A program made the translations under genes and the position numbers. DNA of 61,842 nt, filler included. It is 7 parts of 7 records of this genome, joined end to end, with 100 filler letters (N's around TTAATTAATTAA, not from the genome) between each part and the next. Parts side by side here need not be neighbours in the genome. Positions count along the whole stretch, not along the records: positions 30,108 to 39,175 come from SRR31147125_11071; 6 more parts are not named here. The stretch is one strand, 5' to 3'. Position 1 is the first letter of the stretch. Each line of letters opens with the position of its first letter. Positions 4,475-39,175 of the stretch are shown in pieces. The notes below the pieces were generated by a model. It was not told the DNA's origin and did no database searches. It worked only from the letters and a program-made list of their open reading frames with translations.

Positions 4475-7269
4475 GTGAACAACCAAAGCAATGAGAAAAA
4501 AATTATAAATTACATATTATTTCCAATACACACTGGGATCGTGAGTGGGTTTATCCCTTCCAGGAAACAAGATTACTCTTGTTGGATTTTATGGATAATC
4601 TTTTAGATATGCTTGATAGAGATACCGAGTTTCACTCTTTTTTAATGGATTCCCAGACTCTGTGTGTGGAAGATTATTTGGATTTACGTCCTGAAAGAGA
4701 AGAACAGGTTAAGAAGCATGTTCAGTCCGGCAGACTTATTGTCGGTCCCTGGTACTCTTTACCAGAAGAATATATCGTCAATGGTGAATCTCTGGTGCGT
4801 AATCTGGTCGTTGGGCACCGTTTGGCCAAAAAATGGGGTAAAGTAAGTAAAATAGGTTATACTCCATTTTCATACGGACAAACATCACAGATGCCACAAA
4901 TTTATCGCGGATTTGATATTGATACGATTATCTTTTATCGCGGCATCAATACCCCAAAATCTGAATATGTTTTGGAAGGACCGGATGGATCTCGAGTGAC
5001 AGGGTGCCGTTTTGGAGCTTTATCACGTTTTAGTTACTATTTTTATGTATACCGTATGGTAAGATATGGCATGAGCCGTGATGAATGGTGGTATGACTGG
5101 GATCGTGGTGCCTTGCCATTCCGCTTGTGTAATGAACATCATCCGGATGCCCATTATTATACATTGGATCCAAAAGATAAACAATGGAACAAAGATGTCC
5201 TGCCAAAGCAATTGAAAAAATTGGTTGATGATGAAAGTGAACATTTTAGCACATCTCATATTGCTTGTATGCAGGGTTTTGACTCGTCCTCACCGGATTC
5301 ACGTGAACGGGATTTAGTAGAAGCCAGCAAACCTATTTTAAAAGAGATGGGTCATGAAATATATCTGGATTCTCTGGAAAATTTCATGCGCGATATGATG
5401 GAGGAAGTAGAGAATCCTACTGTTCTTAAAGGTGAGAGCCGAAATCCGGGAGCAACCGGAAAGTGGACAAATCTAATGGGTGATGTCATTTCCAGCCGGT
5501 CCCGTCTCAAACGAAGAAACGCTCAAACCGAGACAATCCTGCAACGATGGGCTGAACCTTTTTCCGCCCTTGGATGGGTTGCTGGTGGACAATATATGAA
5601 ATCAGCGATCGATTTGGCCTGGCGTTATTTGTTACAAAATCATCCACACGACACGATTTGTGGCGCCGGAATTGATCAGATGGAAAAAGACATGTATTAT
5701 CGATTCGATCAGGCGACCATTATTTCAAAAGGTGTTATGCGTCGTGGTATGGCCGCAATTCAGAAGCGAATTGACAACACTGATATCGATATCCACGATT
5801 CCGTCGTGACCGTTTTTAATCCCTGTCCATATCCTCGAACAGAAGTTATGACCTTGTTACTGGACTTGCCAGCTAATTGCGAATACGAAGGATTTTCTAT
5901 TCGCGATATGGAAGGCAATGTCATCCCACATGCTGAAACAAAACGGGAACCTTTTGGTACTTTGGTTCGAAATCTGCAGGACATATCCCTGCAGCAGCGT
6001 TCTGATCGAATTACCCTTCATGCTGAATTAGAAAATATTCCGGCATATGGATATAAAACCTATCATATCCGGCATGAAGATAAAGACCTGGAAAAACTGA
6101 CAGTGGGTCTCGGTGATGCTAAAGACGAAGCGATACTTGAAAATGACTATTTAAAAGTCAATATTAATCCGGATGGTAGCTTGAATATGTTAGATAAAGG
6201 GACTGGACGGAATTACGAAAATCAGCATTATTTTGAAGAACAAGGTGAAAGTGGCCACCCGTGGATTCACATGACTCCTGAAGAGGATGAAATAATCACG
6301 ACCCTGGGTAAGGATGCGACTATTGAACATGTAGAAACAAGTCCTCTTTTAACCAGATATAAAGTTACGATTATTATGTCTGTGCCCGAAGGTATGGAAG
6401 GTGAAGAAGGAAATTATCGTCGAACTAAAGCCCGAAAAGATATGACGATCGAATCGATTTTGACCTTACGTAAAGGACAACGCTGGTTGGACGTTGAAAC
6501 AAAATTTGAAAACAACGTTGAGCAGCATCGGGTTCGAGCATGTTTCCCGACCAAATTAAAGGCAGATGTCTCGGCAGCCGAAGCATCCTTTGATGTGATT
6601 GATAGACCTATTGATAGAACTCCGGATAGTTTGTATTATGATAAACCAAATCCACAATATCCCATGCATCGATTTGTGGACATCAGTGACGGAACGAATG
6701 GTTTGGCCTTTATAAACGATGGTATCCGTGAATTTGAGGCTGTGGATAATGAAGAGCGTACACTTTGTATTACACTTGTTCGGGGATTTACAGCCATGCA
6801 ATCACCGGTTATTGATCAATGGGATGTTTATCCATGGATGAAGATGGCGCAATCTCCTGGGATACATGAATATAGATATGCTATTATGCCACATGCTGGA
6901 AATTGGGAAGAAGGCGACGTCTATCGTGAGGCCGACAAGTTTAATCTACCGTTGGAAACAGCGCAGGCCGGTAAAGGTGGGGGTGATTTACCTAAACAAG
7001 CCAGCTTTATTGAGATCGAACCAAAAGAAATTGTCGTCAGTGCTCTGAAAAAATGTGAGATTCGCGATACCCTGGTCATGAGACTTTACAATCCGACAAT
7101 GAAGGAAGTGGCCGGAAGCATCACGTTTTTTAATCCTGTCACAGAAGCATGGTTAACCAACATGGATGAAGAGCGTCGGGAGATCTTGCCAGTTGTGGAT
7201 AAAAGTATTGCCGTTCATTTTGGGCCTAAAAAGATTCAGACTATTGAAGTTGCACTAAAAAATGACTAA
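4475..7269 (+). CDS. GH38 alpha-mannosidase-like glycoside hydrolase (apparent frameshift in A7 run 4496-4502)
   Basis: The main frame from 4501 reads NYKLHIISNTHWDREW (GH38 Zn-binding HxD motif), then GPWY, GESLVRNL and QNHPHDTICG. That frame has TGA at 4492 and no start before the motif, while AGGAG plus GTG 4475 lies in the adjacent frame. Confidence 0.85.
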
Positions 7270-7341
7270 TAAATCAGTGCTTTAGCTTTTTATGTTATTT
7301 TAAGCGCCTTATTAACACATGAAATGGAATGAATTGATGAT

Positions 7342-7384
7342 AATGAATGACCTGTCTTTTTTGACAGGTCATTCATTGTTTTGA
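7342..7384 (+). terminator. Rho-independent terminator-like hairpin
   Basis: Perfect 15-bp stem AATGAATGACCTGTC / GACAGGTCATTCATT with a T6 loop and a following GTTTT, downstream of the GH38 gene. Confidence 0.7.
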
Positions 7385-7540
7385 GAAAAAGGCCGAGTTT
7401 TTTATTTGCCTGATGAGTAAATTAGGTAAAATATTTGGATGTGACGATTTTTTTTATGAAAAAAAGTAATTATATTAAAAGTATATGAAATGTTAAGAAA
7501 ATGTTTTTTTATTATTAATTAGAGTGAAAGGTGAAGAAGA

Positions 7541-24432: not shown

Positions 24433-24532
24433 NNNNNNNNNNNNNNNNNNNNNNNNNNNNNNNNNNNNNNNNNNNNTTAATTAATTAANNNNNNNNNNNN
24501 NNNNNNNNNNNNNNNNNNNNNNNNNNNNNNNN
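24433..24532. other. Artificial contig linker
   Basis: N44-TTAATTAATTAA-N44. Confidence 0.98.
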
Positions 24533-26006
24533 AGGTTAATCGATTTATTCAAATCGGCATCAGAAATTGAACCACCCCCTATTTCGCAAGTCGCTTCGGC
24601 ATAAATCAATAATACTTCTGCGTAACGAATTAGCGGATAATTGTAAGATTCTTCTTTTGTTTCGCGGTTAATATGTTCGGTTATAAATTTACGTCCCTGG
24701 TAACCTAAGTTACGTGCATTTGATGGAGAAGAAAGGTTAGGCACATACGTATAGTCGTAACCAGTACCTGCATCATCGAAAGCAACACCATACTGTGCTC
24801 CGGCACCATTGGTACTGCTACCCCAGCCCCAATATTCTTTTAATGGCTCGCTAACCAAACCAACTAAACGAAGGTCGCGGTTTTGGAACTCATCTTTCAT
24901 AGCACTATAACCTTCGAACAATGGAGAATGCTGCACTGGCAAACCATCGGTACATAAGTACATATCCATTAACTTACGTGTAGGACAGTGTGGTTTTGAG
25001 TGAGTCAAATTCTGATTAATTTGCTTATATGTATAATCATAAACAGTTTGGAAAATATACTCTTTGTTATCGGCCTTTGTAAATCCACCTGGATTCGACT
25101 GTCCATCTTCCAGATTAAAAAGATAAAACATGTGGTTGTTATTGTAATCTTCGCTAAAATCATCACTATAACCGGCTCCCATATCAGCTTGATGGTCCCA
25201 TAATTCGAACAAACCTGTATTCATTACTGCTTCCGCCTGAGTTTTAGCCTCTGAAAACAATTCTGAGGTACTTGGATACCCGGATGGTTTTGTAGAACCT
25301 GCACCTGATGAAGTACCATCGCCATCAAGGTAACTAAGGTCGGCATATTTTTCGTAAGTAGCTTCGAAAAGACAAATACGGGCTTTAAATGCCCTGGCTG
25401 CCTCAACAGAAAGTTTACCGAAATCCTCATCGCTAATACTGCTATGAGAAGGCAGGTAACTTATTGCTACATCTAAATCGCTAAGCATTTGGTAAACTAC
25501 CTCGTAGCGACTGTTTCGTGGTCCGTATAATACTTCCGAGCTTACATCTAACGAACTGGTTACAATTGGCACACCACCAAAGCGGCGTAACAGTTTCCAG
25601 TGGTGCCATGCTCTAAAAAGTAAGCTGCACCTAAATATTCTTGAATTTCAGAAGCATCGCCAGGATATTCTGCCGCTTTTTCAATCAATTGGTTAGCAAC
25701 ACGCATTTGACTGTAGTTGTCTTCCCAAATATCATCGGTTTCTCCGGCAACAGTAGTTCCCTGACCGTAACCCCAATCATAGGTAAGGTTGTTCGATAAA
25801 TCAGAAGTTTCATCTCCATCTTCGAAGCCTAAACGCTTGTAGAAATAGTTTGAAGCATATTCAAACTGATCGGCAGTTTGAAAATAAATTGATTCTGTTA
25901 CTGAATCCTGTGGGTCCTGATCCAAATAGTCTTCACAGCCACTCAGCAAAAAACTTGTAAGGAACAGCACAAAGGCAAATCCTTTTATATATTTTTTCAT
26001 ATTCAT
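24533..26006 (-). CDS. susD: SusD/RagB family glycan-binding lipoprotein (frameshift at A5 25615-25619; 3' truncated)
   Basis: Lipobox LSGC then EDYLD..P. Adding one T gives AYFFRAWHHWKLLRRFGGVPI. Also DL..AI..LP, RDLRL and PLIRYAEVLLIYAEA. Confidence 0.9.
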
Positions 26007-26031
26007 TTTGTGTACTTTTTTTAATTAACGA

Positions 26032-29000
26032 TTAAAATGTAGCTTGTATACCAAATATTAATGCCGACTGGAAGGTTAAGGCATCACCATTGTGTGCATC
26101 TTCGCCATGCTCAGGATCTAATCCATCGGTAATATTCGAGATTACGAATAAATCGTTACCGGTAACAGATAAGCGTAAGTTATCAACTCCAATTTTATCT
26201 AAAATTGGTTTTGGCAGCGTATATCCTAAAGTAATTGCTTTAGCGCGTAAATAAGCAGCTTTAATTACGTTAACATCGTTAGTGTGAGCATAGTTCCAAG
26301 TTTTTCGGCTACCATTATAACCTAAAATTGGAAGTTCTGAATTGGTATTCTCAGGAGTCCAGGTTTTATCCAACCATGATTCGTTTTGTCCCATCCACCA
26401 CGCTTTGAATGGATAAGCCATAGTACCACTACGTACAATGTATTGACGGCCAACACCCTGGAAGAATGCGCTAAAATCAAATCCTTTCCATTCTAATCCA
26501 AGGTTAATACCATAGTTATAATGAGGATTAGCATCGCCATAGTAAACCAGGTCGTCGGTACTGATTATACCATCTTCGTTTACGTCTACCCTGTTTACAC
26601 AATAGGTATCAAACGGTTTGCACTTCGGTAAGAAGGAAGCAATGTACCCGATGCCATAGTGTTTTGGTCTAAAGCATCGGCAAAACCAACTTGGTTATAA
26701 TAATTCAATACTTCGTCTTCAGTTTGGAATAAACCATCAGTTTTGTAAGTATAAATAGCATTTAATGGTTTTCCTTCAATTGGGTCGTCGTTAATACCAT
26801 ACGAGTAATTAACCGCACCGTCCATACGGGTAACTTCGCCTTTACTATCCCAAATATTGAATCCTACGCTGTAGCGCAAGTCACCAATTTTATCTCTCCA
26901 CTTTAAGTCAACTTCCCAACCTTTGTTTTCAAAGTCGCCACTGTTTGTTTTAGGAGCCGAAGCACCCAGTACCTGTGGGTAAGTTATACTAATCAACATG
27001 TCGTTGTTCTTGTTGTTGAAGTACTCAACTGTACCGCTTAAACGACTATCTAAGGCAGCAAAGTCAACAGCAACGTTTGATTTTGCAACACGCTCCCAGC
27101 TACGGTCGGTTGAGGTCATAGAAGAAATATTTGAAGTATTTTGAACTGCCGCACTTGTACCAAAATAAGTTGTTCCGGTACTAATAGTTGAAACGTAGTC
27201 ATAGGCACCAATACCTGTAGTAGATCCCATTTCACCATACGAGGCACGAAGTTTTAAGTTATCAAAAATACCATCTTTTAAGAAGCCCATTTCCGACAAA
27301 CGAATACCGGCAGAAGCACTGTAGAAGTTTTTCCAACGGTAATCAGGATCTAAACGTGAAGAACCATCACGGCGGGCAGAACCCTCTAAAAGGTAAATAC
27401 CTTTGTAATCGTAATTTAACTTACCAATGTACGATACTTGTCCAACAGAAGAACTTCCTGAGTCTTTTGTGTTTGTAGTTGAAAATCCGGCATTTGTCAT
27501 TGTTGAAGCATCACCGGTATTTAAATCGTCCAATTCGTCAGATGCCATATTACTTCGGTACATGTGATATTGCATATTGTCTTGTACCTCAGAGATAGCT
27601 CCTGCCATTACAGCAAAGTTATGATCGCCAAACGAACGACGGTAGTTAGCTTGTACAACGTGGTTTTGGAAAAATACTTTCGACAGATTTACACGAACAT
27701 AGGTTCCAGATGCCGATGGAGATACATTTTCAACATTTCCATCCCAGTCGTATAATGTTACTGTCTTTTTACGCTCGGTATAATCGCTTCTACGGCGGGT
27801 AATATGTGCCTGGTAGTTAAATGATAATCCTTTCACATATTTGTCAAGGTCTAAAATAACTTTACCACCCAAACGAATAGATTCTTGTTCGGTTTCGGTA
27901 CGCCCACCTTCGTTTAACAAGGCAGGAACATTGTTCGCCCACAAGCCATAATATTGTCCGGCAGGATTATAAATTGGATACATTGATGGATTTTGAAGTC
28001 CTTTTCCAATACCCTGTGTAGGTTCATCAATTAACCTATAGTCGTATGCTACGTTAAACTCAGTACTTATCAATTCGTTAACATCATAGGTTACGTTAGT
28101 ACTGAAGTTGTATTTTTTAGCACCATCGTAAACTTCTTCCAAAGCCGAACGCTCGTTGGCATAGCCCAAAGAAGTACGGTAAGTTGCTTTATCGTTACCA
28201 CCCGAAATAGAAAGATTGTGGCGGTGAGAAGTGGTAGTTCCATAAATTTCGTCGTACTGAGTAACATCAGCAAAACGGTGGTCTCTACCAAAAATATAAT
28301 ACGAATCAGGTGCCAATGGGAAAGTACCGTTAGCCAATTCGTAAAATTGATCCTGAGAGAAGAAACGACCGGTAAAACCTGCAGTTTGCATTGCTCCTTC
28401 CGAGTCCATATAATCAATCATATCGTTGGTACCGCCATTGTACCAAAGCTGTGCCCAGTCTGATAGGTTGGCAATTGGTAAGTCGTAGGCAAAATTCAAT
28501 TGAACATCACTCTGGTAATTTACTTTTAGTTTACCTTTTTTACCTTTTTTAGTAGTAATAAGAATTACACCACCGGCAGCTTTTGTACCATAAATGGCAG
28601 CAGCACCATCTTTCAATACCGAGAAAGTTTCAATGTCGTTCGAGTTAAGGGTTGAAAGTTGCCATTCAGGAATTTCCAAACCATCAACAATAATTGTTGG
28701 AGAAATGTTATTTACCGACATATCTCCACGAATTTTAATATCAGTATCTTCGTTACCCGGACGAGCATTGCCCCTGGTAATCTGCACACCATTAACCTCA
28801 CCCTGCATGGCTAAGATAGCATCCGAAGTACTTTTTCCTTTCATTACATCTTCACCTTTAACCTGAGTAACGGCACCGGTAAGTGTGGCTTTCGATTGTG
28901 TACCATAACCTACAACTACCACCTCTTCCAAACCAACTGCGTCGGTTTTTAAGGCTACATTAATTGAAGATTGGTTGCCAACAGTAATTTGTTGCGACAA

Positions 29001-29258
29001 CATACCTACAAATGAAACATTAAGAACACTTTCAGAAGAAAGACCACCTAATGAAAAATTTCCATCAAGGTCGGTAACAGTTCCTTGCGTTGTTCCTTTA
29101 ACAACAACTGTAACACCTGGTAGTGGTTCGTTCTGATCATCTACTACTTTTCCGCTAACTGTTTTTTGCTGAGCATATGCTCCTGCACTAACAGCAACAA
29201 AAAAGAGTGTAAACATTAAAAAGCTTATCGCCTTTTTAATTCTTCTTTTGTTTTTCAT
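26032..29258 (-). CDS. susC: SusC/RagA family TonB-dependent transporter (frameshift near 26600)
   Basis: VSGKVVD..NEPLPGVTVVVKGT, LEEVVVVGYG, VLKDGAAAIYG..AAGGVILITTKKG, RRDGSSR and LKLRASYG. It continues in the next frame as VDVNEDG...GDANPHYNYG and ends in the terminal GIQATF. Confidence 0.92.
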
Positions 29259-29340
29259 AAAAATTAGTTTTTGTTAAAAAATTCAGTGAACTACTTTATT
29301 GATTTATCTATTCATTCTTTATTAAAAGTTAATACCGTGT

Positions 29341-30007
29341 TTATTCATATTTTTTACTTTTTATAATTGATTCAAGGAAATAATAGTCGGCGTAATTTAA
29401 GGGAACATCAATTTCCGACTTAAAAGGTTTAGAGCCGGTAGAGTGCTTTAATAAGAAACCTCCGTTTTTGCCTGTTTCTGCAAAAAACCCGGGAGTAGTT
29501 AAAGTTGACAGTAATTTTTGAGCAGTACTTAAATAGTCTTTATTGCCTGTAAAATCGTACAACTCGAATAATGCCGATGAGATAACAGCTGCCGCCGATG
29601 CATCGTAAGGTTCGTTCGGAATTTCAGGTGCTTCAAAATCCCAGTATGGTATTTTACCCTCTTTAAAACCATCAACAGCTAAAAGGTAATCGGCAACGTT
29701 TCGGGCATGTGCCAAAAACTCTTCCATTCCGGTTTCGCGGTACATCATAGTAAAACCATAAATGGCCCATGCTTGTCCGCGTGCCCAGTCGCTTTCGTCG
29801 GCTGCACCCTGATGTGTATTTTTATTTAATACCTCGCCGGTTTCCGGATCGTAATCAATAACATGATAACAAGAATAATCATCGCGAAAATGATTGTGCA
29901 TTGTTGTTTGAGCATGTTTTACTGCAATCTCTTTAAAACTTGCATTGCCTGTTTCTTTTGCTGCCCACATTAACAACTCCAGGTTCATCATATTATCAAT
30001 AATAACC
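29341..30007 (-). CDS. GH88 unsaturated glucuronyl hydrolase, 5' truncated
   Basis: VIIDNMMNLELL, HQG..DES.WARGQAWAIYGF, DASAAA and YADYYFLE. Confidence 0.9.
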
Positions 30008-30107
30008 NNNNNNNNNNNNNNNNNNNNNNNNNNNNNNNNNNNNNNNNNNNNTTAATTAATTAANNNNNNNNNNNNNNNNNNNNNNNNNNNNNNNNNNNNN
30101 NNNNNNN
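30008..30107. other. Artificial contig linker
   Basis: N44-TTAATTAATTAA-N44. Confidence 0.98.
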
Positions 30108-31530
30108 CCTCAGGAGGAGAATAATTAAATCCGTGCAAAACAGAATGATTAATCCCCATGATAAAATTCAGATCATCCGCTCTTTTTATTGTCTCAAGTG
30201 TTGTCTGAAAAACACCCCTGGTATTGGTCATGGCTTCACAACTGGCTATGGACTTACCTGTCAGATGGGCGCCGGAGGACGTGTATTTGTTCCAGATATT
30301 GTAACCATGAGTATACGCATCCGGTGAAAACAACCAGTTATTACTCTCAGGAATATCCGGGATCATAAAACCCTCAGCCATCCCCATCAACCATGGTACC
30401 CCATAAGCCTGATATCTGGATAACGTGCCATGCTCGTGACACCAGTCATGATACGTTTGAGTGAAACGTTCTAAAAAAAGATCCACAAGTGTTTTACTAT
30501 AATCATATCTTACACGCCGGATAATATCGTTAAAGGTGGGATTTTCGCTAGATAATTCCTGATATCCCTTGAAATTATCCTCATAAAAAACAAACGGGAA
30601 ATAAGGAATCAGGTCATAACCGTTCCGTTTCTTGAATTCTTCAAGTATATCAGATGTCCAGTTGGATCCGGCTAATTCGATACTATCGACAAACAAAGCG
30701 CGAATACTTTTACCTAATGGACCACCTAATATTGGCTCTATTGCGTCAGCCAATCGATCACAATACTTGATCACCGCTTTTTTATTATAATGATCTAAAC
30801 AAGGTCCGTCTGCACCAGGTGCGCCATGCATCACCTGGCGAAAAGACTCGCCCGATTCCAGGAATCCCATTACCAGAGTGTAATTACCTGCCGGCACCTG
30901 CACCACAATTCGATTCTCAGCATCTATTTTATCGGTGACATCAACACATTGATCGATACTTTTAATATTTTCAGGTACAAGGCGTATAAAGAGCAGTGGT
31001 GGTATGGGACTGTGCGGATCTACGTTCCTGCCATGCCCACTTTTGTTGTTTGTATGAAAAAAATCATCGAGGCTTCCGGTAAATCGAGATGGTCCTGTCA
31101 GATTCACTGTTTTCAGGATCACACCTTTAATCTGTTCTTCCGGTTGCAGGAACCGTCCGCCAAATGGCCAACCCGTGCCGATAATGATATCAGTTATCAT
31201 ACCGCGGTCTTTAGCACCATCTGCCGCCACCTTGATAATTTGGCTCCATTCCGGGCTGCCCCACATCAGAGATGGCGTGTCTGTTTTGCTGGCCTCTTTC
31301 GGCATGGCAATCGGATTAATCTCGATCCCGCCGATTCCTGCTGATTTCATGACATCCAATTCGCGCAGTATTTCATTTTCAGTTACATTATTCCCATTCC
31401 ACCACCAACGCACAAAAGGTCTTGCACTGGCAGGTGGATTTTTAAAATCTTTGTAAAGGCGATCCTCTGAGCAACCTGTTATTATAAGTAAAACAAGGAA
31501 CAAGCACCACATTATGAATTTTTTAAACAT
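30108..31530 (-). CDS. GH106-like (alpha-L-rhamnosidase family) lipoprotein, 3' truncated
   Basis: Lipobox ITGC; F.NPP..ARPFVRWWWNG, GIGGIEI, GTGWPFGG, FVDSIE, F..R.GYDL and GINHSVLHG. Confidence 0.8.
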
Positions 31531-31733
31531 ACTCAAACTCCCCGAATGTAAAATAGATGGTAATAATATGTTGTTTTACATTAATGAAGCAAGTCGGTAA
31601 GAAAAGCATCCCCCAACCCATAATCCACCCATCCTAAACCGACTTATTTGTTCAGTTCGGTGACAGAATGAATTATAGTATGTTACGTATATCCATTCAA
31701 ACAGTACTTTTGATCTATTATTTCTTCAGCACA

Positions 31734-32210
31734 TCACTTTTCCCTGTCATCCTTATATCGGATATCATTGTATTCACACCAATCAGCTGCAATACTGTAA
31801 AAGGCATTTTCCCGAAATTCAAACCAGTTCTTTTCAATATTATGTTGGATCAGTTCATCTCTAAAATGATGAAAAGCACCGGAACCTTTTATGGAACGAC
31901 ACACCTCTTCCCGTAATGCTTCATTTTCTATGGTAAGACAAAATCGTTCCATGATAGAGTATTCATTCACATCAAATTTATCCGGCAATTGGACGTAATC
32001 ATCGGATCCCAGAATTTCATCTGCAATTTTCACCCTTGCTCTCTCGCTTGCAGACAGTTGTTCAAGTGGCTTGTCATTTTCAGCGTAACCAAATTCTTCA
32101 TCCGATATGGCATAAATTTTTCCGGTCGGCTTGTGTAAATACTGTTGTAATTCATCTGTTTGTAATTGAATCGCATCTACAACGTGGCTTAATTTCACTT
32201 TTGCACTCAT
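31734..32210 (-). CDS. UPF0158 family protein
   Basis: YLHKPTGKI, LP.KFDVNEYSIMERF, IKGSGAF..FRD.L and W..FR......A.DWC. Confidence 0.8.
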   Translation of the reverse strand: MSAKVKLSHVVDAIQLQTDELQQYLHKPTGKIYAISDEEFGYAENDKPLEQLSASERARVKIADEILGSDDYVQLPDKFDVNEYSIMERFCLTIENEALREEVCRSIKGSGAFHHFRDELIQHNIEKNWFEFRENAFYSIAADWCEYNDIRYKDDREK

Positions 32211-32477
32211 CCTATTTTCTCCGGTTATGGATTTCATTTAGAGTCGTAGTTCAAATGCCATATATATCCAACTATTAGTAATGTAGCAAGTTCATTTTTC
32301 CAAGCAATAGTTTTGTGAAAAAATATGAAATAATTATCATTTTTTTAGGATTGGCCTATTCGAATTTTTCATTTAAAAAAATTAGGGAAGATTGTTAATT
32401 GATATTATTAAAAATTAGGATCTCCATCGTTTTTAGAATAATCATTACAGGGAAACGTGGCAATTGAAATGCCCATG

Positions 32478-32515
32478 CAGTTCGCAGGATGAGAAAAATC
32501 CCACCCTGCGAACTG
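32478..32515 (-). terminator. Strong hairpin downstream of the crystallin-like gene
   Basis: The minus strand reads CAGTTCGCAGGGTGGGA-TTTT-TCTCATCCTGCGAACTG (17-bp stem with G-U pairs). There is no clear U-tract. Confidence 0.5.
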
Positions 32516-32560
32516 AAACATCGAGTCACGAGCATAATAACTAGAACATTTTAGAGAATA

Positions 32561-33214
32561 TTAGACAGGAGGTTGAAGATCAAATTCTACTCCGGCTGCT
32601 CGATCAGCCCAGCCATCTTTGTTTAAATTATAACCACCTTCATCCTCATTTGGTCTATAAGACATAGTAGGACTGCCTGCTTCTAAATGATCCCAAAGGA
32701 TAATTCTGTCTCCATTTATGTAACCCGGTCCTTTTTCTACACGAATGTAAGCTGCCTTGTCTGCAAATTGAAAAAGGTTCAGATCCGCAAATCTTAGACT
32801 GGGTGGAAACTCCCAATCGTAAAGAACGAGATTTGGAATATCGATTTGTTCAGGTGTATCATAAAGAAGGACACGGAGTCGATAATTTCCGTTTGGATTT
32901 GGATTAGTTACGATCAAAGCGGCAGCTGTTTTATCGGCAAAGTTTATTCTATTCAGATCAACATCTGCTGCCACAGCCGGATCAACAGAACAGGTATTTG
33001 TATTACTGCGCCGGACATGATCAAGCAAACGTACATGGTCCCCAATGCGATATTCATCACCCTGCCTTATAACAGCACGGGCAGCTTTGTCAGCAGCGCC
33101 AAATATATTCAAATCAAAAAACAAAAGCCTGTTGTTCTCATTCTGATCATCAAAAGTATGGTAAGGATTGGCGCTTGTAACAAAATCATAAAGATCGATA
33201 AAAAGATGTGCCAT
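32561..33214 (-). CDS. Four-repeat beta/gamma-crystallin-like protein
   Basis: GGAGGTG RBS; four internal repeats of pattern hhL(Y/W/L)D...(D/N)LN....AD(K/R)(A/T)A.h.h. Confidence 0.6.
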   Translation of the reverse strand: MAHLFIDLYDFVTSANPYHTFDDQNENNRLLFFDLNIFGAADKAARAVIRQGDEYRIGDHVRLLDHVRRSNTNTCSVDPAVAADVDLNRINFADKTAAALIVTNPNPNGNYRLRVLLYDTPEQIDIPNLVLYDWEFPPSLRFADLNLFQFADKAAYIRVEKGPGYINGDRIILWDHLEAGSPTMSYRPNEDEGGYNLNKDGWADRAAGVEFDLQPPV

Positions 33215-33464
33215 ATTTTTCACCTCCCTTCCCAATAATTCATTAATTTACGCCAAAAGTTCTCTTGCGGCGCACAATCCATTAAAATATAACATATATA
33301 TAACCGGAATTTAGAATGATGTATTTAGACTCATCAATATAAAGACCAACGCGTTTTGCCAATACATCTTCACCCCCGACAAACATTTTTCCATGACGAA
33401 CTATAACCGGCTTTAACGATATCTGCAATCAGAGAATATTGCTTTAGCAACACAGAAATCACCC

Positions 33465-33857
33465 TTATACCCCTAAGAATGTCAGAGCTGTTCCGACAGC
33501 AGAAGCAATCTTTTTTATTGGCTCAATCAACGTTGTGGTTTCTGTCAATACAACACCGACCATTTTTAATTTTCCGGCAATGGATTTCAATAGTCCATTA
33601 ACCTCCTCCTTATCCACCTGTTCTTTTTGAGTCACCTCATATAATTGGTCAATATCTTCCTTAACCACGTTGTGTGCATGTTCATCAAGATTTAGATCTT
33701 TAACTGCATGGGATAATTCTGAAATGGCTTTATTTATTTCCACTTTGGATATCGTTGTGACATTTTTTATTGCTTTGGCGTGGTCTCCCACAGCTAATAC
33801 ATCTGCTTTTACCTTTTTCGCCTGAATCCCCTTATTGACGGATACTTTTTTACTCAT
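33465..33857 (-). CDS. Small protein: N-terminal beta-rich motif plus helical bundle with hydrophobic C-terminal helix
   Basis: 130-aa ORF with GAGG RBS, 12 nt downstream of the membrane protein gene. Confidence 0.75.
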   Translation of the reverse strand: MSKKVSVNKGIQAKKVKADVLAVGDHAKAIKNVTTISKVEINKAISELSHAVKDLNLDEHAHNVVKEDIDQLYEVTQKEQVDKEEVNGLLKSIAGKLKMVGVVLTETTTLIEPIKKIASAVGTALTFLGV

Positions 33858-33869
33858 TATGTCCTCGCT

Positions 33870-35692
33870 CTACTTTTTACGCATTGCCGAAAATGTTTTG
33901 TTGAACACTTTTTGTGCTTTTGCCCCTGTACCCACTGCCATGGATTCCGCTTTCACGTCACCTCCCTTGACAATGACACCCTGGTTAATGATAGATGTTT
34001 GTCTCTCCTTCAAATCAGATGTATCAACATTATGCTCATCCAGAAAACTGATAAATGTATCTAACAGTTGTCTTTCAATAATTTTGGAATACATTTCTTT
34101 ATCCAGTAATTGAAAATAGTGAATATAATTGGGACTGCTGAATCCCTGCCGAAGCGTTCGATCCGCACCATAATTAAAGAGTGGATTGTTTTTGATCATT
34201 TTTTTCAGTCTTCTATCTTCAAGACCAAATAATTTATCGATAAAAGTTGAAAATTTACCAAATATAACCAAAACAGAATAAGCAGCTGTAAATGGTGTTA
34301 AAAAGAGGTATTTTACCCCTTCGCCAATAAAGCTTGTAAAATCGAGAGGCACCAGTTTATCCACTTTTTTATAGGAATCTGCTAGTGGTGTTAACAGAAA
34401 AGTGCTCACTTCAACAAAGAGCTTGTTTCCACGTCTGGAATATCGTAAAAAGTAGGACACGACCAGTTCATTCCCCCAATCGTAAACCTGAATCCATTTA
34501 TAATAACGGATACGCGAATCATTGTCCGCAGCATATTTGTAAATAATTTTATTATCATCAATTTTAGTATTGGGAGTTGAATACATCGTGGACAGGATCC
34601 AACTTTCCTTACGAATATCAGAACCGTTTACAAATAAAACATTTTTAATTTTGAGTCCATCAAATTTTAATTCTTTACAGGCATGATTAATCGCATTATA
34701 AAGCTCTGCCAGCGTAAAAGGCTGAACTTCCATATTCTCCCCCAGTTCTTCTTTCGGAACCGACACATCCACGGCAAAGGACCAGCCACCCATATTGATT
34801 CCGGATCCAACAAAAGGGGAAAAACCATTATAGATCACCAGACCTTGATTTTCAGAATCAATAGCTTGGATTTGTTTTTCATCCACATAAGCATTAAATT
34901 TTTTTGTAATCTCATCGGCATCAAACTTTTCCTTTTGAAAGTTCTCTAACAGTAATTTGTGTTCGGTATTTCCTTTGTAAAATCTTATAATCCATGCGAT
35001 TACGAAAAGAAGAGGGGCAATGGGAGTCACAAATGTGAATAAAAATAGAATGGCCAGGAAGAAAAAAATAACATGATATTTTGTTTCCCGTTCTTCAAAA
35101 TATTTGCATAACCTGACCACGGTTTGCAAATCATAACCAAGTTCCGGCGCAAACGCTTTATATTTTTGTTTCATATAATTCAAAATTTGATTTCGAAACG
35201 AGCTGCCATTTTGTAAAGCACTTGCAGCCAAATAACGGGTTGCTTCACTATTTTTCATATTCACGGAAACACCTCCATAAATACTATTCGTATTAGATAA
35301 AGATGGACTCATCCCCAAATTAAATAAAGAACGACTCAGAGGTTGATTCGATTTTGGGGAGTAAAAATATCCACCCACCATAGCACCACATATATTAGCT
35401 GTGGCAAATCCTGACATCAATATTGCATAGTCCATACCATAATTTAATACATTGATAAAATTGGGAATCGCCAAAAAAGTCCTACAGTAAGAGCCAGCCT
35501 TAGATCAGAACTTTTGGCAACTCGCAATGCCACATATCCACCAACCAGCGCATATAAGAAATTTAAAAACAACCATCCAAATCTGCCAAATGGTATTAAG
35601 CGGTACAGGTCCGGGTACACTGTATTTATAACAAGTGGCAGAAAATGAGCAACCAGCACTCCGCTTACAACAGCTGCGACGTTTTTTACCAC
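33870..35692 (-). CDS. Multi-pass membrane protein of unknown function (apparent frameshift at A6 35473-35478)
   Basis: GGGAG RBS plus GTG 35692 opens a hydrophobic ORF. One extra T joins it (TVGLFLAIPNFIN) to the 534-aa ORF carrying further TM segments, PFVGSG.....WSFAVD and a C-terminal NQGVIVKGGDVKAESMAVG motif. Confidence 0.7.
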
Positions 35693-35797
35693 GTTTGAAA
35701 CTCCCTTGTGTAAAAGTTAATCTTTTTGCAGGGATTGGCTGTCTAAACAAAAGCATCCAATGCCATCCCATCTGCAGGTCGATCGATCCCAAAAACG

Positions 35798-35838
35798 AAA
35801 AAAGGCGTAACAGGTTTAAAAACCTGGTTACGCCTTTT
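35798..35838 (-). terminator. Terminator-like hairpin in the 5' leader of the membrane protein gene
   Basis: The minus strand reads AAAAGGCGTAACCAGGTTT-TT-AAACCTGTTACGCCTTTTTT. Confidence 0.6.
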
Positions 35839-36315
35839 AAAATTTGAAAATATCAGTACTCCAACACATCATCCCAACCTTGTAATCTAATAATTATACC
35901 TGACAAATAAAGTGATTGTGTGGCAATCCTTTGATAGACAGTAAAATAATTCAAAAGAGAAACACGTTGCATAACTGACTATTCGTAAAATCGTATCATC
36001 CAATTATGACCAGTAGCGACCTCTGACGGTTCAACATATCTCGCAACCCCGGGAGCAACTGTCGTATATCTTGTCATTTAATACATTTAACATCTTTATA
36101 AATATATTATTCCCAGTGAGTGAACTCTCAGGCCAGCTTCTGGCGGCATCCATTTTATAAAAGCCGGCATAATAAAGCCAGAGATATTTGGACTATCCCT
36201 TTAAGACGTATTAGAAAGTAATTCTCATTGATATTTCCATCCCGGATTGCCATCCGGGACGAAAATATCAACGTTCAAAACAATTGTAGATTAAAATTCC
36301 CGGGGTCATATGGTA

Positions 36316-38025
36316 CTATTGCAGCAAAACAAGTTTTTTCACATGAACAAAATCCCTTGTCTCTAGTTTGTAAAAATAGACTCCACTGGAAACGTTCAAT
36401 CCTTTTTCGTCTCTACCATTCCACTTTATAGAAACGAGTCCGGTTGATTGGTATTGGTCGACAAGGGTGGTTATCCGCTGACCGTCAGAATTGTAAATGA
36501 ACAATCTGACATGCGTGGCTTGAGGTAAAAAATATTCTATAGTCGTTTCAGGATTAAATGGATTTGGATAATTTTGCAGCAATTTGTATCCGGATGGCAG
36601 TGAGGTATTTTCAACTGTTTCAACACGAACGGGTATCAGCTCAACATCGATTGCATAGAGTCTGGAGTCAATTGTATACAGGGCTTCATCCTGGGGATCG
36701 GTATCAAGATTGGCAACAAGAATGGCTGATGGTTCCGCATCCAAAACAGATTCCCACAGCATATTATTCTGAATATCATAGACGCGAAGATGTTGCGATG
36801 AAAAATCAGGATCATACCATTTGAGTGACGCTGTGATGATCTCATAAACGCCATCCCCATTAAAATCGCCCATATCAGCCGCACCTGCCTCAGATCGTGT
36901 CAAAAGAATCTCGCCGTTTTCAGCATTAACCAGAGATGTTTTACCATTCCATGGATCCGATATAAATAGCTCATCTTTACCGTCGTTATTCATATCCCAT
37001 ACTTTCAGGTTTTCACCTACCCCTGTTGTTATAGACCAGTCCAGAATTCCTGATGGATCATAACAATAGGCATTACCTAAAACAGCAAAAATCTCATAAT
37101 TTGAATCCTTATTGATATCCTCAATAATGACATCCCTGCCATAATAAACGCCTGACTTTGACCATTCAATCGTATTGGTCTTTCCATCGATAAGAAACAC
37201 TTTATTATCGTAATTGGTCACTGCGACTTCCATGTCGCCATCCCCGTTTATATCTTTTGCATCGATAGCAAACGCGATACCACTGCCCAGATTCTTTTCC
37301 CAGATGCGGGTACCATCCCGCCCATCAAAGAGAACCACCTGGCCTCCGGCAAATGGATATTTTCCGATGGAGGTGACCACATCTTTAAAACCATCATTAT
37401 TAACGTCGCCAAAGGCAAAGTCAGTTACTTCCGGATAATCTCCTGTGGCAGTCCATTCAAGAGAACCATCCTTTTCCAGTTTCACAATTTTTACATTTCC
37501 GTTTGTGACCTTCCCACCAGCAACGACATCGAGAGAGCCGTCTTCATCTATGTCCACGATATCAGCATTGACATATTCCGTCGTATTATCAATCGTATAT
37601 TTCCAAAGCTGCTGACCTGACGCACCATTAACAGCAATGACATCACCAGCTATTGTCCCAATCACCACATCTGCTATACCGTCGTCATTCAGGTCGCCGG
37701 TCGCAAAACCATCTTCCCATCGGTCAAACCATTTGATGGTGGCTGAAGCATCATAAGACCACTTTAATTCTGACCCGTTATAAATTTGAAAATCTTTATC
37801 ACCTGTATCTTCAACCTGAGCGACATCATTTGCGTGTGAAGCATTGACTTTTGCCCATACTGTAGCGGGATGGATATTTTTGATTTTCAAGGCAAGCAAG
37901 CCAGTGTCAGGCGTAATTAAGTCAATGGACTGAAGAAAAATAAAAACATTATTTATGGACAAAAAAGGCACTAATAGTATGAAAACAAAAAGGAAACGTT
38001 TTTTATTAATATGTGCTTTAAACAT
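36316..38025 (-). CDS. Secreted FG-GAP/PQQ-type beta-propeller protein with NYPNPFNP C-terminal sorting (T9SS-CTD/FlgD-Ig-like) domain
   Basis: Repeated GDLNDDG.AD, DIDEDG.LD, GDVNNDG.KD, DINGDGD and GDFNGDG motifs; C-terminal LLQNYPNPFNPET...SSGVYFYKL; GGAGG RBS. Confidence 0.85.
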   Translation of the reverse strand: MFKAHINKKRFLFVFILLVPFLSINNVFIFLQSIDLITPDTGLLALKIKNIHPATVWAKVNASHANDVAQVEDTGDKDFQIYNGSELKWSYDASATIKWFDRWEDGFATGDLNDDGIADVVIGTIAGDVIAVNGASGQQLWKYTIDNTTEYVNADIVDIDEDGSLDVVAGGKVTNGNVKIVKLEKDGSLEWTATGDYPEVTDFAFGDVNNDGFKDVVTSIGKYPFAGGQVVLFDGRDGTRIWEKNLGSGIAFAIDAKDINGDGDMEVAVTNYDNKVFLIDGKTNTIEWSKSGVYYGRDVIIEDINKDSNYEIFAVLGNAYCYDPSGILDWSITTGVGENLKVWDMNNDGKDELFISDPWNGKTSLVNAENGEILLTRSEAGAADMGDFNGDGVYEIITASLKWYDPDFSSQHLRVYDIQNNMLWESVLDAEPSAILVANLDTDPQDEALYTIDSRLYAIDVELIPVRVETVENTSLPSGYKLLQNYPNPFNPETTIEYFLPQATHVRLFIYNSDGQRITTLVDQYQSTGLVSIKWNGRDEKGLNVSSGVYFYKLETRDFVHVKKLVLLQ

Positions 38026-38160
38026 GGTGACCTCCTTTTTATTTAGGAACTCGAATACATCTCAACTCTATTTCAGTTGAAATGCCGGAATTAGACAGGT
38101 TTGATTTGTTTTCTCGAACAGATAGGAACCAATCGCACGGAGAGTATTACCTATAAACAG

Positions 38161-38202
38161 AAAAAGGCATAAACCGGTCCCTCTGAGACCTGCTTACGCC
38201 TT
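38161..38202 (-). terminator. Terminator-like hairpin in the 5' leader of the FG-GAP gene
   Basis: The minus strand reads AAGGCGTAAGCAGGTCTC-AGAG-GGACCGGTTTATGCCTTTTT. Confidence 0.55.
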
Positions 38203-38624
38203 GCTCTCTTGGTCACAATAATTCCCCAGTCCATAATACCTTTTTTACATGTCATGAAATTCACGGCATTTTAAATGATATAAAAACGGTACATGAATTG
38301 ACTGGTCATGGTAAAACAGAGGCATTTATATCGGAAGGGAAATCGCAGAAATTTATTTTTTACATCTACGTCAACGAACAATTATAAACAGTCGACGAGT
38401 TACTACTCTTTTTCTAAAAGTCCCCTGGAAACATTGTCAGGAGTGTGATTTCAATAGCCTCTATAAATTTTTAACATGTTTGGCTATGGATTATTCCCAA
38501 TAGCAGGATATATTGATGTTGTTATCTTGGTTTTTTGATAATCTTATATATTACAGGCTTGAAATACAGATTGTGTGAAATCACATCAAAAAGTTGACCT
38601 CAATAACTATAATTGAGACAAAAC

Positions 38625-39143
38625 CTAATCACCTTTCGGTTTTACGGCGTCAAGAGCGAGATCAGCGATGGCAGGATAGCCTAAAAGTCTTCGGATCATT
38701 CCCAGGGCACCTATGTGATAGGACTCGTGCCACATGTAGAAAATCAGCGTATCAAAAATAGTCTTTTCATGGTGCGGTGATAAATTATCATCTATACGAG
38801 TGTTCAGTTGTTTATCAGTCACCTTTTCCAGAATCCCTTCCAGTTCAATATGAACCTGACTCCACTTTGCTAATAATTCATTAATTTGTGGATAGTCTGA
38901 ACCGTCTGATGCGCCTTTTTCACCAAACATAATTCTATATTCTCGTTTTTTATTGGAACCAAATAAATTCATAACCTGGTGCCGGTAATCCAAAAGATGT
39001 CCCGTGATCCATGAAATGGATGCTCCTTCCCCATTTCGGGATCTACGAATGGCATCCACATTATTAATATCTCCAAGAACCAGGTTCATAATAAAGTGAC
39101 TAAACCGAAAACTCCCTATCGCAGGCTTTATCATTGTCGTCAT
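38625..39143 (-). CDS. DinB/YfiT family protein
   Basis: ISWITGHL and WHESYHIG metal-binding His pattern; size typical of DinB_2. Confidence 0.8.
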   Translation of the reverse strand: MTTMIKPAIGSFRFSHFIMNLVLGDINNVDAIRRSRNGEGASISWITGHLLDYRHQVMNLFGSNKKREYRIMFGEKGASDGSDYPQINELLAKWSQVHIELEGILEKVTDKQLNTRIDDNLSPHHEKTIFDTLIFYMWHESYHIGALGMIRRLLGYPAIADLALDAVKPKGD

Positions 39144-39175
39144 CTTTCGTCCTCACTATTATTGAAAACTTTTTT

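Follow-up and report, generated by a model that had tools for sequence, protein, structure and literature searches.

The window analysed in this study is a stretch of 61,842 nucleotides (nt), joined from seven parts of seven records of one genome, and all positions are counted along this whole stretch. In the part taken from record SRR31147125_11071 (positions 30,108 to 39,175), two adjacent genes on the minus strand encode a large protein, putatively a membrane sensor, and a small helical protein of 130 amino acids (aa). The two proteins carry similar short motifs at facing ends, i.e., near the C-terminus of the large protein and near the N-terminus of the small one. A preliminary description of the locus had proposed that these motifs couple the two proteins in an amyloid-like manner, as a variant of the bacterial pairs built on NOD-like receptors (NLRs). 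Its gene layout, with minus-strand open reading frames (ORFs) separated by 12 nt and both motifs in the places listed below, was reproduced throughout, and its interpretation overall is partly supported. The features of the pair are as follows.

33465..33857, minus strand: small partner gene, 130 aa (ORF), with an N-terminal motif and then a four-helix domain; putative effector
33468..33512, minus strand: last helix and tail of the small protein, weakly hydrophobic (Kyte-Doolittle)
33495..33746, minus strand: four-helix DUF5955-like domain, small-protein residues 38-121 (AlphaFold2; Pfam in relatives)
33771..33836, minus strand: N-terminal motif of the small protein, N8-A29, NKGIQAKKVKADVLAVGDHAKA (translation; alignment)
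33858..33869, minus strand: spacer of 12 nt between the two genes (ORF ends)
33870..35474, minus strand: large gene as called, an ORF of 534 aa
33873..33914, minus strand: basic/polar tail of 14 residues beyond the large-protein motif, QKVFNKTFSAMRKK (translation)
33915..33986, minus strand: C-terminal motif of the large protein, N497-A520, NQGVIVKGGDVKAESMAVGTGAKA (translation; alignment)
33987..35273, minus strand: conserved core of the large protein, residues 68-496 of the called ORF (AlphaFold2; relatives)
34977..35084, minus strand: hydrophobic stretch of 36 residues, large-protein residues 131-166 (Kyte-Doolittle; AlphaFold2)
35444..35692, minus strand: 5' part of the large gene, encoding the N-terminal transmembrane region and called on its own as an ORF of 82 aa (tblastn; contig of run X1)

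Shared Motif in the Window

When the large-protein motif NQGVIVKGGDVKAESMAVGTGAKA was aligned by hand with NKGIQAK--KVKADVLAVGDHAKA of the small protein, 12 of 22 residues were identical with one two-residue gap, the same figure that had been given in the preliminary description. The 24-aa motif obtained a Smith-Waterman score of 44 (BLOSUM62) against the small protein, which ranked above the other 223 six-frame ORFs of at least 60 aa in the window that formed the chance control (runner-up score, 35). A control confined to the window is modest and would be suggestive rather than decisive; the match is placed beyond chance because the comparative data on other loci are decisive, and not by the window score alone. 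Since identical codons were found at just 5 of the 13 identical residues of the window pair, the similarity is not a recent DNA duplication. The membrane protein had been described as ending with the motif. The motif does lie near its C-terminal end, but the very end is formed by the 14 basic or polar residues that follow. In relatives, the tail beyond the motif had a median length of 19 residues and was rich in A, K, S, G and R.

Pairing Across Loci

The pair was compared across 30 genome loci, 79 metagenome loci and the window. The C-terminal end of the large protein was present in 102 loci including the window, three of which ended too soon for judging (L041, L063 and L086; locus labels begin with L), and a partner with a matching N-terminal motif was found in all 99 evaluable loci. 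Of these partners, 88 were found automatically, two (L103 and L104) as motif-bearing ORFs, five with divergent motifs by eye (L009, L020, L023, L026 and L106) and four in an additional check (L027, L045, L047 and L064). The partner gene lay downstream in 95 loci, upstream in three (L010, L073 and L076) and divergently on the opposite strand in one (L027). Among the 88 automatic pairs, the two genes overlapped by 4 nt in 50 and were separated by a gap of 0-20 nt in 24. In a Streptomyces clade of the same family, the product of the next gene likewise started with a motif like that of the large protein in 60 of 62 loci. Homologues thus retain both the motif and the neighbour, the absence of which had been named as a refutation of the proposed coupling. 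The two remaining Streptomyces loci (L161 and L169) have a disrupted large gene.

An all-against-all comparison of the neighbouring ORFs in the 110 loci revealed no third conserved gene beside the pair. One cluster of apparently conserved neighbours from 85 loci was taken to consist of antisense shadow ORFs of the pair; manual mapping placed its member from L001 across the small gene and the end of the large one. What looked like a fusion in L030 proved to be two genes in different frames with a 4-nt overlap, and fused "all-in-one" forms were found neither in the best 150 of 2605 family representatives nor among proteins of 936-2670 aa, which is weak evidence. As separate observations, the partner gene appeared to be interrupted by a frame change or an early stop after the motif in three loci (L011, 5491..5897; L023, 5441..6040; L074, 1801..1950); the sensor gene is intact beside it in L011 and L074 and is itself split in L023. 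In two Saccharopolyspora genomes, an ORF of 464-500 aa directly follows the pair (L022, ca. 6004..7398; L024, ca. 5813..7315).

Motif Matching Within Pairs

The motifs of the two partners were more alike within loci than between them. Over 78 non-identical pairs and 25 columns, within-locus identity was 0.494 vs. 0.457 with shuffled partners, and none of 10,000 shuffles reached the observed value. The excess persisted when partners were shuffled inside motif subtypes (0/10,000) and inside subtypes combined with bins of GC content (9/10,000). Partners without a Gly-Gly arc pair with sensors of the "QGGDV" type, and partners with the arc pair with "SGG/TGG" sensors. In the "long" subtype, cognate identity was 0.320 vs. 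0.246 for shuffled partners, a value reached once in 10,000 shuffles; the cognate excess is attributable to this signal together with the subtype association. Rare deviations at conserved columns also tended to be shared by both partners (Fisher p from 0.005 to 0.03 per column). At V18, both partners deviate in four pairs (Fisher p 0.005), and shared changes include AVG to AAG (L095 and L099), AVG to SFG/SFS (L020), FAGGxHGxA (L106), the final A to I or V (L017, L025 and L093) and HSTA (L079 and L082).

The clearest case came from the Streptomyces clade, in which both partners carry a motif (TYNFxGxIxGPxNFG...) that differs from the window type. For example, the large protein of L159 has TQTYNINNVNGPSNIGPGGQI and its small partner has MTTYNINNVNGPSNIGPDGRI, and the variants NYHxNNVNGPxIFG, AGxIGDNGT and NNFxGPTxGNFG each occur in both partners of a Streptomyces locus. 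Most of the small proteins of this clade are 104-132 aa long (two are longer). The mean Smith-Waterman score was 75.4 for cognate Streptomyces pairs, 53.1 for non-cognate pairs and 23 for residue-shuffled partners, with no shuffle in 10,000 reaching the cognate mean; the cognate partner ranked within the top three in 19 of 60 pairs. When sensors of one clade were scored against partners of the other, values of 19.7 to 20.3 were obtained, i.e., noise near the residue-shuffled level. Because cross-clade scores are noise while motifs match within pairs, the motif class has been replaced jointly in both genes. No other evidence speaks as strongly for a need of the two ends to match as this double replacement at the level of clades. 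Gene conversion between the two genes was also considered as a source of the similarity and was not supported. Codon identity at identical residues was barely higher in cognate than in non-cognate pairs (0.74 vs. 0.67; 5/13 in the window), and because it is raised only slightly, protein-level selection explains the match better than ongoing conversion.

Properties of the Motif

In the large protein, N497 and G515 were invariant among 50 relatives, and G499, G505 and A509 were at least 90% conserved. In the small protein, N8, G10, I11, A22, G24, A27 and A29 were invariant or at least 90% conserved among 58 relatives. The conserved N, G and A residues and the AVG and AxA elements occupy matching positions in the two partners. 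The strict motif pattern was found in 168 of 213 family proteins, where it always ends 2 to 35 residues before the C-terminal end; among 40 of the other 45, most carried variant motifs in the same place, and a few were truncated or had aberrant tails. Compared with the family proteins as a whole, the motif is enriched in N (2.75-fold), G (2.54-fold), A (2.0-fold), Q (1.66-fold), V (1.57-fold) and I (1.26-fold) and depleted in P (0.07-fold), L (0.29-fold) and K (0.75-fold).

The motif is also private to the pair. In six-frame searches of five Streptomyces genomes and five genomes of the window's clade, the motif profiles matched the pair alone at E < 1e-3, with next matches at E 0.2 or worse; in two of the 10 genomes, one pair member alone reached the threshold. 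The possibility that the motif is an integral part of a globular fold, which would have spoken against the preliminary description, is not favoured by the AlphaFold2 monomer models: the predicted local distance difference test (pLDDT) was < 50 over residues 501-534 in the large protein and 1-33 in the small one, whereas the neighbouring domains reached about 90. Both motifs are thus predicted to be disordered in the monomers. When residues 484-534 of the large protein and 1-40 of the small protein were submitted to complex prediction in two copies each, without controls, values of 0.20 and 0.22 were obtained against a mark of 0.34; this model result weighs neither for nor against binding of the two motifs.

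Large Protein

The ORF of 82 aa at 35444..35692 is in a different frame from the 534-aa ORF at 33870..35474. Residues 32-119 of the closest homologue, P0001, were collinear with 35692..35462 (tblastn, frame -3, E 0.001). Within 35300..35800, a contig from public run X1 (depth 35.6), which may derive from the same sample as the window, differs from the window at a single place, by an additional A behind 35472. Among the sequencing runs listed, one DNA run and no RNA run contained the stretch. The one-base frame break sits in a T6 homopolymer of the minus strand (35473..35478), and with the extra base both frames merge into one continuous ORF that starts at 35692 and spans about 607 codons. Judged from these comparisons, the large gene of the window truly begins at 35692, and the called ORF of 534 aa is too short. 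The frame break may be either an assembly error or real variation.

The AlphaFold2 model of the large protein, built with 50 relatives, had a mean pLDDT of 84.6, mostly > 90 for residues 68-500. In this model, two long helices flank the hydrophobic stretch 131-166 and are followed by a central alpha/beta domain; next come two more long helices (379-429), and the C-terminal region, which is helical, leads into the motif. The stretch 131-166 has a Kyte-Doolittle 19-residue maximum of 2.67 and lies within a modelled helix-turn-helix (helices 116-146 and 152-178); it is likely a membrane hairpin or two short spans.

The large protein matched no Pfam, NCBIfam or PADLOC model (0 PADLOC matches), and its relatives gave no family match in profile-library scans except in N-terminal additions. 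A profile search found no sequence relative in the PDB (0 matches), and Foldseek found no PDB match at E ≤ 0.001 (best, 0.025). Many weak Foldseek rows were START/Bet v 1-type proteins, and a wide VIA-align comparison gave a best Z of 6.4, with START-like, KA1 and TBP-like chains at Z of about 5 on residues ca. 226-482. These structural scores are too weak for naming a fold. The nearest ESM Atlas clusters are unnamed or automatically named "Large membrane protein family protein". A 50-member profile detected 2605 clusters (representatives at 50% identity) with E ≤ 0.001, 1484 of them with E ≤ 1e-30. Given these 2605 clusters and no match to a named family, the family is large and unannotated. 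According to record titles, it also occurs in metagenome-assembled genomes (MAGs) of Acidobacteriota, Alphaproteobacteria and Chloroflexota. Literature searches gave no description of the family, although the supplements of Dyrka et al. (2020) and Kaur et al. (2020), which lie outside the coverage of these searches, might list members.

Small Partner and Exchange of Domains

The small protein had been described as a helical bundle ending in a hydrophobic helix. The bundle was supported by the AlphaFold2 model, with four helices at residues 38-54, 59-76, 83-99 and 108-121 (pLDDT ca. 90), but the last segment is merely weakly hydrophobic (Kyte-Doolittle 1.45 over the last 15 residues). The window protein matched Pfam DUF5955 (PF19380) at E 0.013 and 16.3 bits, below the curated threshold of 27.1 bits, and 28 of 58 aligned relatives matched it at E ≤ 0.01 (best, 4e-8), with the L073 partner above the threshold (28.6 bits). 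The helical domain thus appears to belong with DUF5955. The window protein also matched PDC-M14B, a component of a phage-defence-candidate model of PADLOC (E 2.9e-5), as did 20 of the 58 relatives at E ≤ 0.001 (best, 6e-9). This model has 267 positions, and the small partners match its C-terminal ca. 90 residues alone. Identity with the PDC-M14 system was rejected, as just the tail of component B was matched and the large protein had no PADLOC match. Searches gave no literature on DUF5955, the Pfam family PF19971 or PDC-M14.

In other loci, the motif of the partner is joined to other domains. In a Pfam scan of 13 partner proteins, TIR_2 was found in L031, L079 and L083, CHAT in L032, and TCAD2 in L006, L055, L052 and L069; DUF5955 was found above threshold in L073 and weakly in L016, and the partners of L051, L036 and L004 had no significant Pfam family. 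Five partners beyond these 13 (L033, L034, L035, L039 and L084) have the length and motif of the TIR partners L031, L079 and L083. In the TCAD2 partners of L006 (1862..2536) and L055 (1995..2651), the motif was observed mid-protein, behind an N-terminal coiled coil of ca. 85 residues.

The N-terminus of the sensor varies as well. An FHA domain was found in 8 of 62 long members, and a SecD N-terminal part with a periplasmic SecDF P1 head in one of the 62 (protein P0085); the same SecD-like part stands ahead of the conserved core in L031 (2547..4967). Further members, like that of the window, have extra N-terminal transmembrane helices. Going by these domain assignments, the module is laid out like a sensor-adaptor-effector system, its core being constant, its input and output variable and its short connecting motif matched, and the TIR and CHAT partner domains fit a putative role in defence or cell death.

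Comparison With Known Systems

Among fungal pairs of the NLR/HET-S type, amyloid signalling between proteins encoded side by side is established. In bacteria, it has been predicted for pairs of NLRs and Bell-domain proteins with ten families of bacterial amyloid signalling sequences, BASS1-10, which are motifs of ca. 25 residues in which Q, N, G, V and I are over-represented and K, P and L under-represented, and TIR2 and CHAT were reported as alternative effectors of such pairs (Dyrka et al. 2020, bioRxiv 10.1101/2020.01.06.895854). As described there, the Bell/NLR pairs and the present pair have in common adjacent, mostly collinear and often overlapping genes, a terminal, beta-prone motif of ca. 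25 residues rich in N, G, Q, V and I, and TIR2 and CHAT among the effector domains. The composition bias of the present motif resembles that reported for BASS motifs; the comparison with BASS1-BASS11 follows their published description.

Unlike Bell/NLR pairs, the present pair has no NB-ARC/NACHT receptor and no recognisable Bell domain. The NLR-free character suggested by the preliminary description agrees with domain scans of the window large protein, 50 aligned relatives and 62 long relatives, in which NB-ARC and NACHT were absent. The inverted polarity that had also been suggested held against both Bell/NLR and the Bab/Agp pair considered next, as those papers describe them. The motif of the present receptor-like protein is C-terminal (within 35 residues of the end) and that of the TIR, CHAT, TCAD2 and DUF5955 partners is at the N-terminal end, which BASS pairs reverse. 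As its design is described, the BASS screen could not have caught the present system. Whereas BASS pairs are reported mainly from multicellular Actinobacteria and Cyanobacteria, the present family extends to the MAGs of the three phyla and classes named above.

NLR-free amyloid signalling as such has already been published. In the Bab/Agp pair of E. coli, which has a non-NLR sensor, amyloid templating through BASS11 leads to abortive infection (Ibarlosa et al. 2024, bioRxiv 10.1101/2024.11.07.622273). As described, this pair shares with the present one a non-NLR sensor, a small helical effector, adjacent genes and a common motif of ca. 20 residues, and the BASS11 family is likewise linked to TIR and CHAT domains. 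In Bab, however, the motif is C-terminal and follows a Bell-like domain whose N-terminal helix is hydrophobic, whereas the present polarity is reversed, the sensor belongs to an unrelated and unannotated family of membrane proteins, and the small protein is DUF5955-like. A conserved hydrophobic helix at the N-terminus marks Bell/HeLo-like domains; in the small protein, the N-terminus is taken up by the motif, and the hydrophobic segment lies at the C-terminal end. Foldseek and the PDB profile search listed no Bell, Bab or HeLo entry for the small protein; the helical-bundle matches were generic, weak and non-specific, with none by Foldseek at E ≤ 0.001.

Homotypic coupling of core and effector proteins has also been predicted for effector-associated domains (EADs), which are mostly alpha-helical globular domains (Kaur et al. 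2020, eLife, PMC7159879). As in EAD systems, one copy of the present adaptor is carried by a constant core and another by swappable nearby effectors, and adjacent copies are more alike than distant ones; for TCAD2, present on some partners, the Pfam name reads "ternary complex associated domain". Unlike the EADs as described, the present adaptor is a motif of 22 to 25 residues that is predicted to be disordered, and the module lacks a MoxR/vWA, GTPase or STAND core. None of the proteins scanned (window, relatives, partners and Streptomyces partners) contained an EAD family of Pfam. The EACC1-caspase system of the same study is similar in having two genes, a constant membrane component proposed as the sensor and a caspase-superfamily or other effector, but EACC1 is a small domain with a single transmembrane segment encoded 5' of a large caspase protein, and the description of that system mentions no shared terminal motif. 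One Streptomyces small partner gave a sub-threshold EACC1 match (E 0.0023; 18.3 bits vs. a cut-off of 23.6). PADLOC PDC-M14 is alike in that the tail of its component B resembles the small partner, and unlike in that the large protein matches no PADLOC model, so that only the helical domain is shared. Overall, the present system differs from the known ones in the sensor family, the membrane location of the sensor, the absence of a nucleoside triphosphatase or NLR, and the polarity of the motif.

Proposed Mechanism and Alternative Explanations

We think it reasonably likely that the pair is a two-gene conflict module, for defence or regulated cell death, in which a membrane sensor templates swappable effectors through an amyloid-like motif; the homotypic coupling itself is probably amyloid-like. 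The large protein would be a membrane-anchored sensor or hub in which N-terminal transmembrane helices and a hydrophobic hairpin accompany a conserved core on the cytoplasmic side, and would terminate in a flexible motif of 24 residues rich in Asn, Gly, Ala and Val. The downstream protein would present the same motif N-terminally, ahead of an output domain (here a DUF5955-like bundle, elsewhere TCAD2, TIR or a CHAT protease). A trigger might lead to oligomerisation of the sensor, whose gathered C-terminal motifs could then form a cross-beta (amyloid-like, in-register) nucleus. This nucleus would recruit and template the partner motif, and the effector domains would cluster and hence become active, possibly with a toxic outcome.

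Several observations weigh against this mechanism. Co-variation of the two motifs, which the preliminary description had put forward as a check, was evident in the change between clades and in the overall matching but was not detected at a fine scale in the "short" subtype, to which the window belongs: among its 49 pairs, cognate identity was 0.375 vs. 0.376 for shuffled partners, and 5644 of 10,000 shuffles reached the observed value. Moreover, the small-protein motif of this subtype lacks 2 to 4 residues of the Gly-Gly arc, and because these residues are absent, full in-register stacking with the sensor motif is impossible there. Identity in the window pair is just 12/22, the cognate partner was the single best scorer in only 5 of 80 pairs and in 9 of 60 Streptomyces pairs, and the shuffles, like the tests of rare deviations, ignore shared descent, so that independent co-variation events are fewer than pairs. 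Family, structure and PDB profile searches found in the sensor core no nucleotide-binding or known oligomerisation domain on which the nucleation step could be based. The last helix of the small protein is weakly hydrophobic and packed within the bundle in the AlphaFold2 model, and the DUF5955-like domain carries no known activity. The window locus lies between polysaccharide-utilisation genes (SusC/SusD-like, GH88 and GH106) and an FG-GAP protein with a sorting tail of the type IX secretion system (T9SS), with no recognisable defence island, and the searched literature contains no experiment on any family member.

Stable docking would account for most of the same evidence. The motifs might be a docking peptide pair, assembled constitutively into a finite beta-zipper (a hetero-oligomer) through which the membrane protein holds the small protein or enzyme, with no prion-like or amyloid switch and with any activation being allosteric. 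The data on pairing, matching and privacy fit this explanation equally well, the partner motif of the short subtype, being 2 to 4 residues shorter, is easier to reconcile with a finite complex than with in-register stacking, and translational coupling of the kind usual here (a 4-nt overlap in 50/88 pairs) is common for subunits of one complex. We nevertheless regard docking as rather unlikely. The conservation of the same residues (N, G, A, AVG and AxA) at the same positions in both partners suits parallel in-register stacking, and the Asn/Gly-rich, Pro/Leu-poor composition with predicted disorder in the monomers is as amyloid-signalling papers report for their motifs. TIR and CHAT enzymes are generally regarded as activated through induced clustering. 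Recognition of both termini by one other protein, e.g., a protease, a chaperone, or a sorting or modification enzyme, is a far more remote prospect and seems very improbable. Short terminal motifs often serve as sorting or processing signals, and direct binding of the two proteins is something that we infer; yet no third conserved gene accompanied the pair in the 110 loci, the motif was found nowhere else in the 10 genomes searched, and the clade-level motif change and co-occurring deviations would require an unlinked reader that co-varies with both proteins.

The same architecture could also serve a non-immune purpose, as a signalling pair for membrane stress, the envelope or development. Apart from the position of the window locus outside any defence island, this idea draws on the fact that most partners are small helical proteins without known toxic activity and that FHA inputs are common in ordinary Ser/Thr-kinase signalling. 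Against it stand the exchange of the output domain for TIR, CHAT or TCAD2 and the match of 20 of 58 small partners to a phage-defence-candidate model. Conflict systems are typically scattered across phyla in varied neighbourhoods, and so is the present pair. A non-immune role is therefore judged improbable, though less so than recognition by a third factor.

Returning to the conflict module, a wider reading can be advanced tentatively, as possible rather than likely: the pair may represent a large prokaryotic class of amyloid-signalling immunity, with a family of membrane-located, nucleotide-independent sensors (ca. 2,600 clusters) that would nucleate a cross-beta fold at their C-termini and so turn on N-terminally tagged effectors (TIR, caspase-like CHAT, TCAD2 or a helical DUF5955 executioner), and with unrelated motif "codes" in different clades that keep pairs private. 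On that reading, proteins would be coupled by amyloid templating quite generally, well beyond NLRs, beyond multicellular bacteria and in either polarity. The module would add to the known systems an abundant unannotated sensor family, the opposite motif polarity and a membrane-located sensor, and through it DUF5955, like a whole protein family of ca. 2,600 clusters, is given a role that can be tested. The two clades with unrelated motifs, matched inside pairs, constitute a natural experiment that permits a direct test of the specificity code. Because several members come from Streptomyces strains that can be cultivated, the pair is accessible to genetics and phage assays.

Genomic Neighbourhood of the Pair

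A cluster of the polysaccharide-utilisation type occupies 24481..31536 and encodes SusD-like, TonB-dependent receptor (CarboxypepD_reg and Plug), GH88-like and GH106-like proteins. On the other side of the pair, 36316..38025 encodes an FG-GAP protein whose C-terminal sorting domain is of the T9SS type. This cluster and the T9SS protein point to an organism of the Bacteroidota or Fibrobacterota-Chlorobiota-Bacteroidota (FCB) kind. The translation of the GH106-like (alpha-L-rhamnosidase) ORF (30052..31536, minus strand) ends in a run of X at the stretch of N around 30052..30100, and the gene is incomplete in the record. Just downstream of the pair, an ORF of 224 aa (32561..33235, minus strand) had no family match and was not conserved beside the pair elsewhere; by eye, its product contains an internal two-fold repeat (FxDLNxFxxADKAA ... 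DH, twice).

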